Shown here in pieces: positions 2 through 25,663 of a stretch of 30,748 bases of DNA. Origin of the DNA: Miltoncostaeaceae bacterium (GTDB taxonomy: Bacteria > Actinomycetota > Thermoleophilia > Miltoncostaeales > Miltoncostaeaceae). Positions within the stretch are counted from its first letter, which is position 1. Each line of letters begins with the position of its first letter. The notes beneath the pieces were generated by a model that was not told where the DNA came from, did not search any database, and saw only the letters and a list, made by a program, of their open reading frames with translations. The position numbers and the translations under genes are program-made. The DNA is taken from positions 1 to 30,748 of the forward strand of contig DATAGF010000183.1 in the NCBI GenBank assembly GCA_036257075.1. Direction: 5' to 3'.

Positions 2-274
2 CGTCTTGGGGTCGAAGCCGCCCAGCGGCAGCAGCCGCAGGTAGCCGGCGTCCTCGACGTGGCTGACCATGAAGCCGATCTCGTCCATGTGGGCCGACAG
101 CATCAGGCGCGGGCCGCCGCGCCCGGCGCGGCGGGCGACCAAGCTCCCGAGCGGGTCGACCGTGACCTCGTCGGCGATCGGCTCCAGCTCGCGGCGGGCG
201 ACCTCGCGGATGCGCTCCTCCCGCCCGGGGGCGCCCGGGGTCTCGCACAGCTCGGCCAGCAGGTCGATGTTCAC
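2..274 (-). CDS. M42 family metallopeptidase (aminopeptidase/endoglucanase-like), 5' part only, runs off the window
   Basis: My translation from GTG at 274 is MNIDLLAELCETPGAPGREERIRE...DPLGSL...LMLSAHMDEIGFMV...LGGFDP. It contains the M42 PG-x-EE and AHMDEIG motifs. Not in the ORF track because it is truncated. Confidence 0.9.
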   Translation of the reverse strand, partial: MNIDLLAELCETPGAPGREERIREVARRELEPIADEVTVDPLGSLVARRAGRGGPRLMLSAHMDEIGFMVSHVEDAGYLRLLPLGGFDPKT

Positions 275-281
275 GCGGGGC

Positions 282-287
282 ACCGTA
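282..287 (-). promoter_or_regulatory. Putative -10 box TACGGT, 7 nt upstream of the M42 GTG start (leaderless mRNA)
   Basis: Fits TANNNT with a 7-nt spacing to the start codon, and there is no SD sequence. Confidence 0.5.
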
Positions 288-317
288 GCCGAAGGGTGAG
301 CCCCGATGCGCGAAAAC

Positions 318-582
318 GAGACCCGGGCACGGTGGTGTTGACTCTTCCGGCGCCCGCCCCGGCCGAAGGCCGGTGCGCCGGTCTGCAAATGGCCCCGGCC
401 AAGGGGCCATTTGCCGCGTGAGCGGGCCCGCAAGAGGCCCGCTCCCTGCGTCGGGCCGCATCTGCGAAAACGGCGCGCCCCGGCCGAAGGCCGGAGCCGT
501 TTTCGCCGGCGCGCCCGGGCAATCCCGGTCTCAGCTGCAGTATCAGAGCTCCGAAAGCATCAGAGCTCCGAAGCCTCGGAGC
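318..582. repeat. Nested palindromic intergenic element (REP/MITE-like or structured RNA) plus a 2x17-bp tandem repeat
   Basis: Near-terminal inverted repeat GAGACCCGGG (318-327) / CCCGGTCTC (524-532). Hairpins at 347-381, 385-414 (12-bp perfect stem), 420-444 (9-bp stem) and 464-506 (11-bp stem). CCGGCCGAAGGCCGG occurs twice. Tandem AG(T/C)ATCAGAGCTCCGAA at 539-555 and 556-572. Confidence 0.7.
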
Positions 583-1383
583 TCAGTAGACCAGCCAGAC
601 GGTCAGGAAGTAGCCCGCGACCGCGCCGAACAGGAGGGCGTCGAAGCGGTCGAGCACCCCGCCGTGGGCGAGCAGCAGGCGCCCCGAGTCCTTGGCGCCG
701 GCGTCGCGCTTGAGCATCGACTCGAAGAGGTCGCCGAGGTAGGCCGCCGGGCAGATCGCCAGGCCGAGGATCAGGGACTCCCAGCCGCTGATCCAGTCCA
801 TGTAGAGCCCGGCGATCCAGACCGCGAGCGTGCCCGCTGCGAGCCCGATCACCGCGCCCTCGACGGTCTTCTTCGGCGACGTGCGGGGGGCGATGGGGGT
901 CCGGCCCCAGAGGCGCCCGCCGACGTAGGAGGCGGTGTCGAAGACCCAGACGCCGATCAGGACGTTCACGACGGCGGCGGCGCCGTGCGGCAGCTCCCTG
1001 GTGAGCACGAGGGCGCCGAGCGGCAGGCCGAGGTAGACGACGCCGAGCAGGGTGGTCGACATGCGGGTGGTGATGTCGTCGCGGCGGGGCAGGATCAGCC
1101 CGGCCACGGCGACGAGCACGAGGCTGAGCGCGAGGCCGAGGACGACGCCCCGGTCGCCGGGGTCGTAGCCCCAGGCGAGGAGCACGATCAGGATCGTGCC
1201 CAGGTAGCCGGCCCAGCGCAGCGGCCGCTGGGCGGCCGTGAGGCTGTACAGCTCGTAGAGGCCCAGGACCCCGATGGCCGCGGCAACGATGGCGAAGGGG
1301 GCGCCGCCGATCGCCACGACGGCGATCGCGATCGCGATCCCGGGGATCGCGATCGCGAGCCGGCTCGCGAGCGCGGGGTTCAC
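583..1383 (-). CDS. cdsA: Phosphatidate cytidylyltransferase
   Basis: Multi-TM protein with DTASY, SPKKTVEG, GDLFESMLKR, KDSG and HGGVLDRFD motifs. Follows uppS. Confidence 0.95.
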   Translation of the reverse strand: MNPALASRLAIAIPGIAIAIAVVAIGGAPFAIVAAAIGVLGLYELYSLTAAQRPLRWAGYLGTILIVLLAWGYDPGDRGVVLGLALSLVLVAVAGLILPRRDDITTRMSTTLLGVVYLGLPLGALVLTRELPHGAAAVVNVLIGVWVFDTASYVGGRLWGRTPIAPRTSPKKTVEGAVIGLAAGTLAVWIAGLYMDWISGWESLILGLAICPAAYLGDLFESMLKRDAGAKDSGRLLLAHGGVLDRFDALLFGAVAGYFLTVWLVY

Positions 1384-2147
1384 CGCCCGCCGAAGCGGCG
1401 GTGGCGTCGCGCGTAGTCCGCGAGGGCCGCCTCGAGGTCCTCGGGCGAGAAGTCCGGCCAGAGCCGGGGCGAGAAGTACAGCTCGGCGTACGCCGACTGC
1501 CAGAGGAGGAAGTTGGACAGGCGCTGCTCACCGCTCGTGCGGATCACGAGCTCGGGGTCGCGCAGGTCGGGCCCGTAGAGGAAGCGGGCGAACTCGGCCT
1601 CGCCGGCGTCGGGGCCGCACTCGGCGGCGAAGCGGCGCGCCGCGTCCAGGATCTCCTGGCGGCCGCCGTAGTTCATGGCGATGAACAGCCGCAGGCGCTC
1701 GTTGCCCGCCGTGAGGGCCTCCGCCTCGGCGATCTTGGCCCGCAGCGTCTCGTCGAGGTCCTCACAGCGCCCGATGAAGCGGATCTGCACCCGCTCCTCG
1801 TGGAGCTCGGGCACCTCGCGGTCGATCAGCTCGCAGAAGAGCCCCATCAGGTCGTCGACCTCGTCGAGGGGGCGCGACCAGTTCTCGGTGGAGAACGAGA
1901 AGACCGTCAGGTCCTTGATGCCGGCGTCGCCGGCCGCCCGCACGACGCGCTTGAGCGCCCGCGCGCCCGCCCGGTGGCCGGCGCCCACCGGCAGGCGGCG
2001 GACGCGGGCCCAGCGGCCGTTGCCGTCCATGATGATGGCGACCGACGACGGGACCTCGGTGAGGCCCGCCGGTCGCTCCTGGGGCTCGCTCGCCCGCCTG
2101 AGCCCGAGGACGGAGCGGGCGGTGCGCAGCCGGGTTCGGATCGTCAC
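1380..2147 (-). CDS. uppS: Undecaprenyl/polyprenyl diphosphate synthase
   Basis: IIMDGNGRWA, FSFSTENWSR, NYGGRQEI and RTSGEQRLSNFLLWQSAYAE motifs. Confidence 0.96.
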   Translation of the reverse strand: MTIRTRLRTARSVLGLRRASEPQERPAGLTEVPSSVAIIMDGNGRWARVRRLPVGAGHRAGARALKRVVRAAGDAGIKDLTVFSFSTENWSRPLDEVDDLMGLFCELIDREVPELHEERVQIRFIGRCEDLDETLRAKIAEAEALTAGNERLRLFIAMNYGGRQEILDAARRFAAECGPDAGEAEFARFLYGPDLRDPELVIRTSGEQRLSNFLLWQSAYAELYFSPRLWPDFSPEDLEAALADYARRHRRFGGR

Positions 2148-2160
2148 CCTCGGCCCGCCG

Positions 2161-2718
2161 TCAGACCTCGAGGATCTCGGCCTCTTTGCGGGCCATGAGA
2201 TCGTCGATGGCCTTCACCTCGGCGTCGGTGAGCTTCTGCACCTCGTCCTGGCCCCTGCTCAGCTCGTCGCGCGACAGGTCGCCGTCCTTCTCCGCCCGCT
2301 TCAGCTCGTTAAGCACGTCGCGGCGCACGTTGCGCACCGCCACCCGTGCCTCCTCGGCCATCTTGTGCACGAGGCGGACCATCTCCTTCCGCCGCTCCTC
2401 CGTGAGTTGGGGCACCGGCAGCCGGATGATCTGGCCGTCGTTGTTCGGCGTGAGACCGAGGTCGGACTCCATGATCGCCTTCTCGACCGAGGCCATGATG
2501 CTGCGGTCGTACGGCTGCACGGTGAGGAGCCGCGGCTCCGGGGCGTTGATGGTCGCGAGCTGGTTGAGCGGGGTGCGGGTGCCGTAGGCCTCGACCGTGA
2601 CGCGGTCCAGCAACCCGGTCGACGCCCGCCCGGTGCGCACGGTCTGGAACTCACTCGCGAGGGCCTTCACCGCGCCCTCCATCCGCCGTTTCGTGTCCTT
2701 CAGCCGATCCTCATCCAC
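2161..2718 (-). CDS. frr: Ribosome recycling factor
   Basis: RTGRAS, NNDGQIIR, LTEERRKE and RVAVRNVRRD motifs, 185 aa, conserved gene context. Confidence 0.97.
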   Translation of the reverse strand: MDEDRLKDTKRRMEGAVKALASEFQTVRTGRASTGLLDRVTVEAYGTRTPLNQLATINAPEPRLLTVQPYDRSIMASVEKAIMESDLGLTPNNDGQIIRLPVPQLTEERRKEMVRLVHKMAEEARVAVRNVRRDVLNELKRAEKDGDLSRDELSRGQDEVQKLTDAEVKAIDDLMARKEAEILEV

Positions 2719-2736
2719 CGCCGCCCCCTCGATCGG

Positions 2737-3507
2737 TCATTCCGTGACAACCATCGTGCCGACCTGCTCGCCGTCGAGCAGCCGCCCGATGTTGGCCTCG
2801 TCGCTCATGTTGAAGACGAAGATTGGCAGCCCGTTGTCCATGCAGAGCGTCAGGGCGGTGGTGTCCATCACCTTCAGGCCGCGCTCGATCGCCTGCATGT
2901 GGCTGATCCGCGGGATCAGCTTGGCGTCGGGGACCTCGCGCGGGTCGGCGTCGAGCACGCCCTCGACGCGGTTCTTGGCCATGAGGATGCACTCGGCGCC
3001 GATCTCCAGCGCGCGCAGCGCGGCCGTCGTGTCGGTCGTGAAGAACGGGTTGCCCGTGCCGCCGGCGAAGATGACGACCCGGCCCTTCTCGAGGTGGCGG
3101 ATGGCGCGCCGACGGATGTAGGGCTCGGCGACCTCCTGCATCGCGATCGCCGACTGCACCCGGGTCGTGAGGCCCAGCTTCTCGAGCGCGTCCTGGATCG
3201 CCAGCGCGTTGAGCACGGTGGCGATCATGCCCATGTAGTCGGCCGTCGCGCGGTCCATGCCGATCGCCATGCCCTGGAGGCCGCGGAAGATGTTGCCCGC
3301 GCCCACGACGATCGCCACGCCGACGCCGCGCTCCACGGCGTTGTGGACCTGCCGGGCGATGGCCGCGATGCGCTCCGGGTCGATGCCGTAGGGCTCGTCG
3401 CCCATCAGGGCCTCGCCGGAGAGCTTCAGCACCACCCGCGAGAAGGCCGGGCCGCCCGCGACGGCGGCGGCCCGCGCACCGTCGCCCGGGGCGGAGCTAC
3501 TGGCCAA
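2737..3507 (-). CDS. pyrH: UMP kinase
   Basis: [38 protein letters not shown] and KVMDTTA motifs. The TTG start overlapping the tsf end is uncertain. Confidence 0.96.
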
Positions 3508-4102
3508 GCTCGAAGAGGCTGAAGCGCCGGATGGTGATGTTCTCGCCCAGGCTCCCGGCCGCCTCCGCCCGAAGCTCCTCGATGGTGCGCGGCTTCTTCT
3601 CCCCCTGGTCCCGGACGTACTCCTGGTCGAGGAGGCAGATGGACTTCAGATGCTTGGCCAGCTTGCCCTCGACGGCCCGCTCGCGCGCGTGCTCCGGGAT
3701 GTCCTGGGCCTGGGCCTCGTAGATCGCCCGCTCGGCGGCGATGTACTCCTCCGGGACCTCGTCGCTGCTCACGAAGCGCGGCTTGAGCGCCGCGATGTGC
3801 AGCGCGATCTCGTGCACGAAGTCCTTGAACTGGTCGGTGCGGGCGACGAAGTCGGTCTCGCAGTTCACCTCGACCAGCACGCCGACCCGGCCGCCCGCGT
3901 GGATGTAGCTGTCCACCAGGCCCTCGTTGGCGGCACGGCCGGCTCGCTTGGCGGCGTCGGCGAGCCCCTTGGTGCGCAGGGCGGTGGTCGCCGCCTCGAT
4001 GTCGCCGCCGGCCTCCTCGAGCGCCCGCTTGCAGTCCATCATCCCGGCGCCCGTCCTCTCGCGCAGGTCCTTCACCAGCTGGGCAGGGATGGCGGTGCTC
4101 AC
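3497..4102 (-). CDS. tsf: Elongation factor Ts (short, about 201-aa form)
   Basis: [23 protein letters not shown] and [10 protein letters not shown] motifs. The GTG start at 4102 overlaps the rpsB TGA (GTGA); the upstream part of the track ORF is spurious. Confidence 0.96.
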
Positions 4103-5079
4103 GCGGTGTCCTCTCCGTCGGCGGCCGGCGCGGCCTCGGTGGCCGGCTCGGCCGGCGTGGGCTCGGGCTCGGGAGCCTCGGGGGCGGGCTCGGGGGTCGC
4201 CTCGGGAGCGGGCTCGGGGGTCGGCTCGGCGACGGGCTCCGGGGTCGCGTCGGCGGCGGGCTCCGGGGCGGGCTCGGGGGTCGGCTCCGGCTGGGGCGCC
4301 TCCGGCGCCGGGGCCTCGGCGGCCGGCGCCGGGGGCTCGGGCGCCCCCTCGTCGCCGGCCGGCGCCTGGCCGTCGGCCGGGATCCCGGACGCCGGGACCC
4401 GGGCCTTGCCCTCGATGATCGCGTCCGCGAGCGCGCCGACGATCAGGTTGCACGAGCGGATCGCGTCGTCGTTGCCCGGGATGACGTAGGTGGCCTCGTC
4501 CGGGTCGCAGTTGGTGTCGACGAGCCCGATGACCGCCAGGCCGAGGCGATTGGCCTCACGCACCCCGATGGCCTCCTTCTTGAGGTCCACGATCACCACC
4601 GCGTCGGGCAGGCGCTGCATGTCGGCGACGCCGCCGAGGTTCGTCTCGAGCTTGGTGAGCTCGCCCTCCCGGGCAAGGCGCTCGCGCGTCGGGAGCAGGT
4701 CGAGCTGGCCCTCGCGCTTCTGGTTGCGCAGCTCGTGGAGGCGCCGGATGCGCTGGGAGATCGTTCCCCAGTTCGTCAGCAGCCCGCCCAGCCAGCGGTG
4801 CGACACGTACGGCATGCCGGCGCGCGCCGCGTGCTCCTGGATCGCGTCCTGGCACTGCTTCTTCGTCCCGACGAAGAGGACGGTGCCGCCGCGCTCGGCG
4901 ATGTCGCGCACGACGTCCATCGCCTCCTGCAGGAGCACGATGGTCTGCTGGAGGTCGATGATGTAGATGCCGCCGCGCTCGCCGAAGATGTAGCGCTTCA
5001 TCTTCGGGTTCCAGCGGCGGGTCTGGTGCCCGAAGTGGACCCCGGACTCCAGCAGTTGCTTCATGGTGACGGTGGCCAC
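4099..5079 (-). CDS. rpsB: 30S ribosomal protein S2 with a Pro/Ala/Glu-rich C-terminal tail
   Basis: [30 protein letters not shown] and [10 protein letters not shown] motifs. Confidence 0.98.
4110..4390 (-). repeat. Low-complexity coding repeats ([10 protein letters not shown]-like) in the S2 tail
   Basis: Repeated GGCTCGGGG(G/A)(T/C)CG-type units encode PEP(T/A)PE motifs. Confidence 0.75.
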
Positions 5080-5226
5080 GGGCGGCTCCCTGGGCTGCGG
5101 TTTGGCGTGTCGGGCGCCGGCGCGGGCCGATGGACCGAGGGCGCGCGTCGTCGGGGACGCCGCGCCCCGGCACCGCCATCTGGCGGGTTCGCGCCGGGGA
5201 GAGGGCCGGATGTGCTGCGGCCCGCG
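5080..5226 (-). promoter_or_regulatory. Putative rpsB 5' leader (S2 autoregulatory structure)
   Basis: About 150-nt GC-rich leader after the -10 box TAACAT (5227-5232). Contains GCACATCCGG...GGTGCC.GGGG...AAACC segments that resemble rpsB leaders as I recall them; not confirmed with a covariance model. Confidence 0.5.
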
Positions 5227-5232
5227 ATGTTA
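5227..5232 (-). promoter_or_regulatory. Putative -10 box TAACAT of the rpsB-tsf operon, overlapping the rluD TAA stop
   Basis: TANNNT match at the expected position upstream of the leader. Confidence 0.6.
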
Positions 5233-6165
5233 GCGCGCGGGCGCTTCCCCTCGCGCACGGTCCAGCGCCGCCTGCAGGTCGGCGGGGAGGGGGCTCTCGA
5301 CCTCGACCGGCTCCCCCGTCTCGGGATGCGGGAAGGCGAGGCGCCCGGCGTGGAGGAACTGGCGGTCGAGGCCGAGCGTCTCGGGCCGCCGCCCGTAGAC
5401 CCGGTCGCCGACGACGGGGTGGCCCACCGACTCGAGGTGCACGCGGATCTGGTGGGTTCGCCCGGTCTCGAGGCGCGCCTCCAGCAGGGAGAAGCGGCCC
5501 AGTTCCTCGAGCCGGCGGAGGTGGGTGACGGCCTCACGGCCGTCCGCGGCGCCCACGGCCATGCGCGTGCGGGCCCGCCGGTCGCGCCCGACCGCCCTGT
5601 CGATGGTGAGGGCGGGCGGCGCGGCGCCGTGCACGAGGGCCAGGTAGCGGCGGTCCACCAGGCGGTCGCGCATCATCCGCTGGAGGCGGCGGTGGGCGCG
5701 CTCCGAGCGGGCGACCACGAGCAGGCCCGAGGTGTCGCGGTCCAGCCGGTGGACGATGCCCGGGCGGGCCGGGTCCTGGCCGCCGGCGATGTCGCGCGCG
5801 ACCAGGCCGTGCACGAGCGTGCCGGCGCGGTGGCCGGCGCTCGGGTGCACGACGACGCCGGCCGGCTTGTCGACCACCAGCAGGTGGTCGTCCTCGTAGC
5901 GCACCGTCAGGGGCATGTCCTCCGGCTCGATCCCCGCCGGCGGGGGCGGCGCCGGGCGCACGAGCACCGACTCGCCCTCGGCGAGGAGGTGCCGCTTCGG
6001 GACGGCCCGCCCGTCCACCAGGACCCGCCCGGCCTCGATCAGGCGCTGCGCCTCGGCGCGGCTGCCGACCTCGGCGAGCCCGCCGACCACCGCGTCGAGG
6101 CGGCGGCCGGCCTCGCCGGCGCCGACTGCGAGCCGGACCGGAGGCGGGTCAGCCCGCTCGCTCAT
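5230..6165 (-). CDS. rluD: RluA/RluD family 23S rRNA pseudouridine synthase with S4 domain
   Basis: RLDAVV S4 motif, VVDKPAGVVVHP, GIVHRLDRDTSGL, LETGRTHQIRVH and GDRVYG motifs. ATG at 6165, downstream of lspA. Confidence 0.93.
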   Translation of the reverse strand: MSERADPPPVRLAVGAGEAGRRLDAVVGGLAEVGSRAEAQRLIEAGRVLVDGRAVPKRHLLAEGESVLVRPAPPPPAGIEPEDMPLTVRYEDDHLLVVDKPAGVVVHPSAGHRAGTLVHGLVARDIAGGQDPARPGIVHRLDRDTSGLLVVARSERAHRRLQRMMRDRLVDRRYLALVHGAAPPALTIDRAVGRDRRARTRMAVGAADGREAVTHLRRLEELGRFSLLEARLETGRTHQIRVHLESVGHPVVGDRVYGRRPETLGLDRQFLHAGRLAFPHPETGEPVEVESPLPADLQAALDRARGEAPAR

Positions 6166-23480: not shown

Positions 23481-23486
23481 AAGCTA
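23481..23486 (-). promoter_or_regulatory. Putative -10 box TAGCTT for leaderless murA-his, overlapping the upstream TAG stop
   Basis: TANNNT match, 8 nt before GTG 23472. Confidence 0.5.
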
Positions 23487-24650
23487 GCAGGAGGACAGCG
23501 CCGCGATCCCCGCGGCCAGGCGGGCCACGTCGGCCTCGTCGGTGAAGAAGCCGACCGAGGCCCGGAGCGCCTCCGGGCGCACGAGCGAGCGCACCACGAC
23601 GCCCCTGGCGGCGAGCTTTGCGGCCGTCTCGACGGGGGCTCTCCCGGCCACGGTGAAGGTCACCAGGCCCGCCTGCGGCCCTGGCGGGGTGAGCACCTCG
23701 ACGCCGTCGATCGCGGCCAGCGCCCGCCGCGCCGCGGCCTGGGCCTCGCGGACCCGGCCGTGGATCCACGGCCAGCCCAGCCCCGCCAGCCACGCCATTG
23801 CGGCATCCCAGGCCGCGAGCAGGGCGGCCGGCCCCGTGGACGCCTCGTAGCGGCGCGCGCCCGGCTGGGGCTCCATCGCCCCCTCCTCGCCGTGCGCGTC
23901 GCCGCCCGCGGCGCTCTCCAGGCCCGCCACGGTCACGTCGATGCGCTCCATGGCCTCCGGGCGCACCCAGAGCACCCCGAGCCCCTCGGGCCCGAGCAGC
24001 CACTTGTGGGCGGGGAAGGCGTAGGCGTCGGCGCCCAGGGCCGCCGCGTCCACGGGAATCGTGCCGACTGCCTGGGCGCCGTCGACGACGACCAGGGCGC
24101 CCGCCGCGCGGGCCGCGCGGGCGGCGCCGGGCACGTCGAGCACCGCCCCGGTCGACCAGGAGACGTGCGAGAGCGCCACCAGGCGCGTCCGGGGCCCGGC
24201 GACCTCGCCGACCGCCGCCTCCAGGTCACCGCCGGCGCGCTCGGCACCGATCACCCGCAGGCGCGCCTCCGAGCGCCGCGCCACAACGGCGAGCGGCACC
24301 GTGAGGCCCGGGTGCTCCAGGGCCGTCGTGACGATCTCGTCGCCGGGGCGCCAGTCGATGCCCCAGGCGGCGAGGTTCACGCCCTGGGTGGTGTTGGCGG
24401 TGAGGGCGACGGTCTCAGGGCCGGCCCCGACGAGCTCCGCCGCCGCCGCGCGGACCGCCGCCGCCCGGGCCGCGCTGCGGCCGAAGCCCTCGAGGCTCCC
24501 GCGAGCCCGCGCGGGCGTCTCCGCGGCCCAGTCGGCCAGCGCCCGCGCCGCCGGCAGGCAGAGGGGGCCGATGGCGCCGCTGTTGAGGTAGGTCGTGGAC
24601 GCCAGCACGGGCAGCTGGGCCCGCACCTCGGCCAGGTCGGGTGGCGTCAC
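23484..24650 (-). CDS. PLP-dependent class V aminotransferase-fold enzyme (cystine C-S lyase/CefD/EgtE-like)
   Basis: YLNSGAIG, LEHP, LSHVSWSTG, VDGAQAVG, AHKWLLGPEG and LRAS motifs. It lacks the C-terminal catalytic Cys loop of IscS/SufS. Confidence 0.87.
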   Translation of the reverse strand: MTPPDLAEVRAQLPVLASTTYLNSGAIGPLCLPAARALADWAAETPARARGSLEGFGRSAARAAAVRAAAAELVGAGPETVALTANTTQGVNLAAWGIDWRPGDEIVTTALEHPGLTVPLAVVARRSEARLRVIGAERAGGDLEAAVGEVAGPRTRLVALSHVSWSTGAVLDVPGAARAARAAGALVVVDGAQAVGTIPVDAAALGADAYAFPAHKWLLGPEGLGVLWVRPEAMERIDVTVAGLESAAGGDAHGEEGAMEPQPGARRYEASTGPAALLAAWDAAMAWLAGLGWPWIHGRVREAQAAARRALAAIDGVEVLTPPGPQAGLVTFTVAGRAPVETAAKLAARGVVVRSLVRPEALRASVGFFTDEADVARLAAGIAALSSC

Positions 24651-24729: not shown

Positions 24730-24987
24730 ATGAGGCTCCTGCGAATGATGCCCGGCTACGGGGAGACCCTGATCGCCGAGGGCGACCCGCTCCAGGCGGA
24801 CGAGCGCGAGCGCCTCCTGAGCGAGTTCCGGCGCCAGCTGGACGAGGGCATGTGGGCCGCCGTCCCGGTCGCCGACCCCGGCACCGGCCGGCGGGAGGCG
24901 GTCCTCGTCACGGACTTCGACGAGATCCCGGAGGACGCCGAGCGCGTGCTGTTCTGGCCGCGCGCCGCCGGCGGCGGCGTCTCCTAG
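24730..24987 (+). CDS. 85-aa putative beta-grasp (ubiquitin/MoaD/ThiS-like) protein ending ...VLFWPRAAGG-GVS
   Basis: High GC3 and a promoter upstream. The C-terminus IPEDAERVLFWPRAAGG parallels the MoaD-type L.DGDEV..FPPV.GG. Confidence is for the CDS; the fold is an inference. Confidence 0.8.
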   Translation: MRLLRMMPGYGETLIAEGDPLQADERERLLSEFRRQLDEGMWAAVPVADPGTGRREAVLVTDFDEIPEDAERVLFWPRAAGGGVS

Positions 24988-24994
24988 GCGCGCG

Positions 24995-25663
24995 GTGGGC
25001 GGGCTCGGGGTCGTCGTCCTGGTCGTGACCTTGGGCGCGCTCGCGGCCGTCATGGGCCGCCCGATGCTGGGGCGCCGGCTGCGGACGCGCGGCCGGCGCA
25101 GTGCGCTCCCCTCCTGGATCCGCGAGCCGCCCCTCCCGCCCGAGGAGGCCGAGCAGCGCTCCCTGGAGCTCCTGCGCTCGGTCGTCAACGAGGACGAGTG
25201 GGCGCAGTTCTGCGAGCTCGGCTTCATCTGCGTCATCGGCCGCCGGGCGCCGCGGCCGGGCCGGCCCGCCGGCGGGCCGCCGCGCTACCGCTACCTGATC
25301 TACCCCCACCTGCCCGTGGTCGCCCTGCTGCCGCGCTCGATGGCGCCGGTGCGCGAGTACTGCGTGCAGTTCCCGGAGCGCGGGGGCGAGGGCGAGGGGA
25401 CGCCGCTCCTCCCCAGGGGCGACGACGTGCTGGCCAAGTGGATGACCCTGCGCGCCGACGAGGACCGCCTGCTGTCGTACGCGAACGTCGGCAACGCCGG
25501 CTGCCAGGTGCCGCTGAGCCGCATCGAGCGCGACATCGCGCGGCTCGAGCGCTGGACCGCGCGCGCGCGCAAGGATCAGAACGGCGGCTCGGGCTCCCCC
25601 GCCGGCGGCTCGCCGGGGGCGGCCGGGAGGTCCTCGGCCGTCAGCTCCTCGATCCTGCGCTGA
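24995..25663 (+). CDS. Hypothetical protein with an N-terminal TM helix and a Cys-containing soluble domain
   Basis: Starts 7 nt after the small GG protein and has high GC3. Hydrophobic stretch GLGVVVLVVTLGALAAVM; notable segments RYRYLIYP, EYCVQFP, LPRGDDVLAKW and DEDRLLSYAN. The last 29 codons overlap xseB antisense. Confidence 0.82.
   Translation: MGGLGVVVLVVTLGALAAVMGRPMLGRRLRTRGRRSALPSWIREPPLPPEEAEQRSLELLRSVVNEDEWAQFCELGFICVIGRRAPRPGRPAGGPPRYRYLIYPHLPVVALLPRSMAPVREYCVQFPERGGEGEGTPLLPRGDDVLAKWMTLRADEDRLLSYANVGNAGCQVPLSRIERDIARLERWTARARKDQNGGSGSPAGGSPGAAGRSSAVSSSILR

Follow-up and report, generated by a model that had tools for sequence, protein, structure and literature searches.

A membrane-anchored protein of an undescribed family paired with a Gly-Gly-ended beta-grasp protein in Thermoleophilia

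Results

The locus and its two genes

A stretch of 30,748 nucleotides from a Miltoncostaeaceae bacterium of the class Thermoleophilia (assembly GCA_036257075.1, contig DATAGF010000183.1; hereafter the window) carries two adjacent genes on the plus strand, one for a small ubiquitin-like protein (Ubl) and one for a membrane-anchored protein that is the subject of this study and is referred to below as the partner. The small gene (24730..24987) encodes an 85-residue beta-grasp protein of the ubiquitin/ThiS/MoaD-like kind, in which an invariant ...FWPRAAGG is followed here by a non-conserved tail of three residues. The partner gene (24995..25663) has a GTG start 7 nucleotides past the stop codon of the small gene and encodes 222 residues. 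It is a real gene: GC content at codon positions 1/2/3 is 0.74/0.57/0.99, with position 3 reaching 1.00 in the core, and the third-position value matches that of the neighbouring class V aminotransferase gene and differs from that of the antisense frame. A search of 5.8 billion proteins returned 340 homologues of the partner at E<=0.01, all of them hypothetical proteins without Pfam domains, whose named sources are Miltoncostaeaceae and metagenome-assembled genomes (MAGs) of Thermoleophilia. Short contigs from metatranscriptomic libraries overlap parts of both genes, including one exact 87-nucleotide piece of the small gene; the shares are 0.04-0.07, most pieces stem from relatives, and DNA carry-over is a possible source.

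The first-pass annotation, made from the sequence alone, had described one N-terminal transmembrane (TM) helix, an Arg/Pro linker and a compact domain with four Cys, and all of these are present, the motif segments that it quoted included. The TM helix (residues 1-22, 24995..25060) is indicated both by hydropathy, residues 1-19 being the most hydrophobic 19-mer (mean Kyte-Doolittle 2.39, against at most 1.14 for every other such segment), and by an AlphaFold2 model with a helix at residues 3-30. The linker (residues 22-48, 25058..25138) is basic and variable in family alignments; since residues 22-40 hold seven Arg/Lys and no acidic residue, the positive-inside rule suggests that the soluble domain should face the cytoplasm. 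The conserved core (residues 49-200, 25139..25594) is modelled as a confident alpha+beta domain (residues 49-199, mean predicted local distance difference test score, pLDDT, 84.7) consisting of two helices, a four-strand meander, two helices, a strand and a long C-terminal helix. The four Cys are residues 73, 79, 123 and 170.

The earlier description stands, with one correction for the last ~29 residues. The partner gene and xseB, which lies on the minus strand, are convergent and overlap by 88 nucleotides at their 3' ends (25576-25663), and the partner tail that is encoded there is modelled with low confidence and is absent in most relatives, which places it outside the functional domain. Its ...SAVSSSI-R/L-R segment looks conserved, yet this is the antisense of the conserved xseB C-terminus, and the segment is missing from lineages in which xseB is not a neighbour.

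The two genes form a conserved pair

The small protein is modelled by AlphaFold2 as a beta-grasp (pLDDT 87.4), and nearly all of its fold matches are ubiquitin-superfold domains, among them the sulfur carrier TtuB and RnfH. Residues G81-G82 are invariant and the C-terminus has the general form ...P-x-A-G-G. The protein thus shares the beta-grasp fold and C-terminal Gly-Gly (GG) with PF02597 (ThiS/MoaD), and lies below the gathering cut-off of that family: the window's protein gives no match, a genome-wide PF02597 scan misses the locus, and 2 of 33 relatives show weak ThiS matches in Pfam (best E 0.0081).

Among 401 genomes sampled from the phylum, the partner is confined to the window's class, apart from one clearly distant and one marginal match. 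Within the class it occurs in 2/7, 7/8, 3/6 and 1/1 genomes of the four families coded f1, f3, f5 and f6, respectively. Each of the 14 Thermoleophilia genomes with a partner gene has the small gene immediately upstream of it, as do additional metagenome loci. In five of these 14 genomes GG is the very end of the small protein, which runs one or two residues beyond it in six and three to nine residues beyond it in three, the last being those of the window's family. The module is passed on vertically within Thermoleophilia and is dispensable, since five of the seven sampled genomes of the window's own family lack it despite being 97-99% complete.

The surroundings of the pair change from lineage to lineage. 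It is flanked here by a class V aminotransferase gene and xseB, and in other lineages by genes for a ThiD-like kinase and ilvD, or by dprA and an L,D-transpeptidase gene; across all loci the neighbours include hisZ, murA, xseAB, thiD-like genes, ilvD, leuS and gatA. Because these neighbours vary, the conserved unit is the pair alone and no flanking gene represents a conserved functional link. The aminotransferase (23484-24650, minus strand) is cysteine desulfurase/C-S lyase-like and is divergent to the small gene; it was ruled out as a conserved functional partner, since it adjoins the pair in the window's lineage (locus L018) and in none of the other lineages examined. Two database entries, P0088 and P0348, read the small protein and the partner as a single fused open reading frame, probably through frameshift or read-through calls in metagenome contigs. 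Several other database partners are called as fusions with ilvD or with the ThiD-like kinase, and look like gene-calling artefacts of GC-rich DNA. Taken with the residue conservation and complex prediction given below, it is well supported that the membrane-anchored protein is a dedicated partner of the GG-ended beta-grasp protein.

One cysteine is conserved across the family and is lost together with the small gene

In the close family alignment three Cys of the partner (C79, C123 and C170) appear invariant. When 1.8 billion proteins, each representing one cluster at 50% identity, were searched exhaustively, a further 202 clusters came to light, reaching down to ~30-40% identity, and in most of these wider relatives C79 and C170 are replaced by Arg, while C73 is not conserved. 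Cys123 (codon 25361..25363, in the motif EYC at the end of strand 4) is therefore the sole family-wide Cys, present in 119/120 close homologues and 109/121 cluster representatives, a conservation equal to that of Y100, P104, H105, E121, D143, D144, K148, W149, D155, E156, N164 and R179. The Cys of EYC, the Asp pair of GDD (D143-D144, 25421..25426), the DE pair (D155-E156, 25457..25462) and the AN pair (A163-N164, 25481..25486) had been proposed as a possible active site. The family alignment bears out the conservation of Cys123 and the acidic residues in homologues, and the Cys, the first Asp of GDD, DE and AN make up a conserved polar core.

A metal or Fe-S site made of C79, C123 and C170 was considered and ruled out, since two of the three are Arg in most of the family. 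Cys79 (25229-25231) and Cys170 (25502-25504) undergo a paired switch, both being invariant in the window's lineage and both being Arg in most other lineages. That these positions change together suggests that they may be spatially close, forming a disulfide or metal ligand in one case and a charged pair in the other.

Five divergent homologues lack Cys123, and none of them has a small GG gene in the 190-6000 nucleotides of upstream sequence available. One of the five comes from a 4.3-Mb genome, in which the small-protein profile found zero matches, whereas three positive-control genomes each gave E<1e-40. In a phylogenetic tree four of the five group in one well-supported clade and the fifth stands apart, all of them on long branches. 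This fast-evolving sub-lineage is represented by L025:6001-6639 (GCA_017916475.1) and by loci L028-L031; at L025 the end of a gene for a ThiD-like kinase overlaps with the partner gene instead.

A paralogous module and a distant pair retain the same residues

Searching genomes with the small-protein profile uncovered a second, weaker copy in several of them. This paralogous small protein is beta-grasp-like, 72-75 residues long, and ends in P-I-A/S-G-G at the stop codon, exactly at GG in 5/5 paralogue loci where it was detected. Downstream of its gene is that of a membrane protein of 220-250 residues with two N-terminal TM helices and the invariant motifs WCV, LPxGDRVAHLLLALREDE and VAN (L032:1886-2815 and L033:1718-2700, both on the minus strand, and L034-L039). 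This paralogous membrane family has at least 7917 database members and no match in Pfam or PADLOC, and in the genomes sampled it is limited to the same class. The two membrane families are homologous (hhalign probability 94.6%, E 6.8e-8, 104 columns). Their alignment pairs Cys123 with the invariant Cys157 of the paralogous family, and L139-P140, D143, D155-E156 and A163-N164 are also common to both, so that the conserved polar core, which is nearly the whole set proposed from the sequence alone, is kept in a distant family; the Y-P-H-x-P turn is not shared.

A very distant pair was found in a MAG named Actinomycetota bacterium (contig JBBINU010000015.1, L016:1300-2109, minus strand, the same locus as L019). 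Its small protein has 74 residues and ends ...R-P-M-A-G-G, and its partner retains the Cys, LP-x-x-D, DE and the Asn of AN, is without His105, and has its membrane helices at the C-terminus rather than at the N-terminus. This pair adjoins a gene for a UvrD/PcrA-like helicase.

These comparisons bear on whether the partner could be a cysteine peptidase that uses Cys123, His105 and an Asp to trim the residues beyond GG or to detach the small protein from targets. The non-conserved residues that follow GG (3-11 of them in the lineage of the window, 1-2 in several further lineages) would give such an enzyme a substrate, and Cys123, His105 and D143/D144 are conserved within the family. The partner is retained, however, where the small protein already stops at GG; His105 is absent from both the paralogous family and the distant pair, and lies outside the predicted interface; and searches of folds and profiles revealed no peptidase, whether papain-like, OTU, Ulp or other. 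A JAB peptidase is encoded elsewhere in each genome. The peptidase activity that had been raised for the partner is therefore very unlikely.

The two proteins are predicted to form a complex

The complex was modelled from both family alignments, using the soluble domain of the partner (residues 40-200) and the mature small protein (residues 1-82), alongside three controls. The median of the interface score ipSAE was 0.64, against 0.00 for the best control; in calibration, 58 of 80 solved complexes attained this mark, as did 2 of 110 mismatched pairs, and these counts are only a rough guide here because our own alignments were used. At least 88% of contacts were common to the runs, and partner pLDDT was at least 84. 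The predicted interface covers partner residues 46-65, 123-129 and 137-164. The sheet of the small protein (residues 4-12, 39-46, 54-59 and 74-77) packs on the partner helices 49-65 and 141-164, and its tail (residues 76-82) meets the segment 123-129, which begins at Cys123, and residues 137-147; D143 touches residues 6 and 76 of the small protein. More conserved partner positions lie in this interface than chance would place there (14 observed vs 7.8 expected, p=0.006). The model supports binding between the two proteins, short of demonstrating it, and moderately supports the idea that the conserved Cys123 pocket receives the GG tail. The functional link to the GG protein that had been read from the sequence alone is thus strong, resting on synteny, on a complex prediction that passes its controls and on the loss of Cys123 where the small gene is absent.

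Such an interface would also suit a complex without catalysis, in which the small protein is a stable subunit, chaperone, regulator or membrane-tethered protein, and Cys123 and the acidic residues merely line a groove. The majority of the partner's conserved residues are in the predicted interface, the partner matches no enzyme family, and its long C-terminal helix together with weak PAXX/XRCC4/SAS-6-like fold matches hints at a scaffold or dimer. YukD and TmoB are prokaryotic beta-grasp proteins that act as non-conjugated subunits (PMC1779556). On the other hand, three Ubl families, two of them paralogous and one distant, have an invariant exposed GG at or right beside the C-terminus, for which it is hard to account without chemistry at the carboxylate, and the single residue that is lost together with the small gene is the Cys. 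We regard a non-catalytic role as unlikely, though it is the most probable of the alternatives to catalysis of an E2-like kind.

The partner has no significant match to a known family or fold

The partner has no match in Pfam, NCBIfam or PADLOC, in agreement with the earlier statement that no family could be named for it, and none of 54 partner members gave a Pfam match at E<=10. Scans of the small protein and of complete alignments likewise yielded nothing of use; matches to DUF6400 and Sensor (E 0.02-0.09) fall on the TM/Arg region, and the sole match in a sequence-profile search of the PDB, to concatenated RecA constructs, is artefactual. No significant match to the E2, papain-like or rhodanese folds, which had been suggested for comparison, was recovered: Foldseek returned nothing at E<=0.001 in the PDB or AFDB Swiss-Prot. 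A feature search of the ESM Atlas gave no usable named match and an Atlas fold search found the partner family itself only. Matches to AFDB clusters at E ~1e-5 are unnamed proteins of 94-545 residues, one of which is labelled as a large polyvalent protein-associated domain.

Two further functions that had been suggested found no backing. A sulfurtransferase of the rhodanese type is disfavoured by the absence of a Pfam or fold match, by a model that is an antiparallel meander, unlike the rhodanese fold, and by the C-x5-R motif, which reads C-V-Q-F-P-E-R in the window and whose Arg is not conserved in relatives. A role in anti-phage or stress signalling has no evidence in its favour; PADLOC-DB has no match for the partner, the small protein or the paralogues, and the loci have no defence-island neighbours. 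No description of the pair was found in the literature searched. We conclude that the partner belongs to an undescribed family and that the pair is neither a sulfur-carrier pathway nor an operon of activating enzyme (E1), conjugating enzyme (E2) and peptidase.

An activating enzyme is encoded elsewhere in the genome

The window's genome and four relatives each carry four or five canonical ThiS/MoaD (PF02597) genes, one ThiF-type E1 (PF00899) and one or two JAB peptidase genes, and in four of the five a ThiS gene has the E1 gene and a JAB gene no more than a few kb away, at a site other than that of the pair. In the window's genome the only ThiF-type E1 is found on another contig (C256:8511-10806), clustered with a canonical ThiS/MoaD gene and a JAB peptidase gene. 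With one E1 per genome encoded elsewhere, an activating enzyme is therefore available in trans, and the ThiF-ThiS-JAB cluster holds a candidate activator and processing enzyme for the small protein.

The same cluster fits a sulfur relay, in which the small protein would be a thiocarboxylate carrier of the ThiS/MoaD/CysO type and the partner a membrane-bound user of that sulfur or a loader with a persulfide on its Cys, with the GG tail placed in an active site in the manner of MoaD-MoaE or ThiS-ThiG. The cluster that holds the sole E1 of these genomes is of the sulfur-carrier type; the end of the small protein, F-F/W-P-P/R-A-A-G-G, is similar to that of sulfur carriers; the weak ThiS matches of the small protein and the presence of TtuB and RnfH among its fold matches point the same way; and the predicted interface is large and includes the tail. 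The class V aminotransferase gene in the window's lineage, and the ThiD-like kinase and IlvD genes that flank the pair elsewhere, would also suit such chemistry, but these neighbours vary by lineage and so provide no conserved functional link. Moreover, four or five canonical PF02597 proteins are already present per genome, the small protein is under the cut-off of that family, and the partner is unlike any known sulfur-acceptor enzyme, for which a single-pass anchor would be unusual. We consider a sulfur relay unlikely, and slightly less so a non-catalytic complex.

Discussion

Our best reading is that the two proteins form an obligate complex in which Cys123 would act on the C-terminus of the Ubl, either as an E2-like thioester or in a sulfur relay. 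Of the specific forms, we rank first a partner that is an E2-like thioester carrier, a preference that we hold tentatively and with rivals close behind it. The small protein and the partner would be made together and assemble tightly at a ratio of 1:1, with the small protein packing by the face of its sheet on partner helices 49-63 and 141-155 and its flexible ...P-x-A-G-G tail running along residues 123-129, starting at Cys123. The single ThiF/MoeZ-type E1 encoded elsewhere may adenylate the C-terminal glycine of the small protein, after which Cys123, aided by D143, D155/E156 and N164, could form a covalent acyl intermediate with this glycine. The partner would then work on the inner side of the membrane as a minimal E2-like carrier of the thioester, and might hand the small protein to a membrane-proximal acceptor.

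The active site that was proposed at the outset, with E2-like, peptidase or sulfurtransferase chemistry, is upheld in so far as Cys123 is conserved and the GG tail lies on residues 123-129 in the model, while a match to E2 enzymes is lacking. The partner alignment was compared with one E2 family, Prok-E2_B, of which only four sequences were recovered from the 401 genomes, which makes this a weak comparison. Its best local alignment matches the aromatic-Pro turn of the partner with the FPYxPP motif, and Cys123 with the Cys, of E2 enzymes, and is insignificant, so that the likeness to E2/RWD proteins, a fold resemblance below noise, is a lead and not a finding. A Pfam scan of 54 partner members gave no profile match at E<=10 to the E2 families UQ_con and Prok-E2_A-E.

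Several observations weigh against the E2-like carrier. The comparison with the four-sequence Prok-E2_B alignment gave 0.34% probability (E 0.18), the partner has no HPN motif, and neither the paralogue nor the distant pair has kept its YPHxP motif. The complex model yields no distance between Cys123 and Gly82. The joint loss of Cys123 and the small gene amounts to one or two evolutionary events only, and is thus suggestive rather than statistical evidence. Large conserved non-covalent interfaces such as the one predicted here are more typical of MoaD-MoaE and ThiS-ThiG than of E2-ubiquitin pairs. Finally, the operon encodes no E1, ligase (E3) or deconjugating peptidase, unlike the characterised bacterial Ubl conjugation systems (PMC11601596, PMC1779556).

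A more specific proposal extends the thioester carrier to a minimal module with its E1 in trans, in which a single-pass membrane-anchored protein with a highly diverged, hitherto unrecognised E2-like fold would use a Cys123 thioester to transfer the Ubl onto a target close to the membrane, for example a membrane protein, an envelope precursor or the head group of a lipid. Bacteria would then have a counterpart of Atg3-Atg8 lipidation, present in Thermoleophilia as two or more modules that arose by duplication; we regard this scenario as improbable.

The pair differs from each of the systems to which it may be compared. The partner shows no significant sequence or fold match to the E2 (UBC)/RWD/UEV superfold (Prok-E2, BilB, the E2 domain of Cap2, BubB), and, in contrast to these proteins, is membrane-anchored and has a large predicted non-covalent interface with its Ubl. 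Its operon has no E1, JAB or E3 gene, whereas the Bil, Bub and CBASS conjugation operons always encode their own E1 (PMC11601596). The pair resembles ThiS, MoaD and CysO in that a small beta-grasp protein of ~80 residues with a hydrophobic-Pro-x-x-G-G end is encoded next to a dedicated partner, with the E1 elsewhere, and has a tail predicted to insert into that partner as in the pairs of these carriers with their enzymes. However, the partner is unrelated in sequence and fold to ThiG, MoaE, CysM and TtuA, and carries a membrane anchor and one conserved Cys, and the small protein stands apart from the canonical carriers in its PF02597 score. As with YukD and EccD-type Ubl domains, a beta-grasp protein is tied functionally to a membrane protein in Gram-positive bacteria (PMC1779556); YukD, by contrast, is a non-conjugated protein without a C-terminal GG whose partners are polytopic components of ESX, and no secretion genes lie near the present pair.

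Known prokaryotic Ubl systems are either sulfur-carrier pathways with known enzymes or E1/E2/peptidase operons, many of which are anti-phage. The two-gene module described here combines a beta-grasp protein ending in GG with a membrane-anchored protein that belongs to no known family, and exists in at least two paralogous versions, one of which has thousands of database members. If Cys123 does handle the C-terminal glycine, the module would represent a new family of carriers or enzymes for membrane-located Ubl chemistry in bacteria and would provide a simple two-protein system for studying the origin of such chemistry. Even if the association is non-covalent, two large families of hypothetical proteins, from Actinomycetota that abound in soil, now have an assigned partner and an interface that can be tested. 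Overall, these data suggest that soil Thermoleophilia carry an unstudied ubiquitin-like or sulfur-carrier module.
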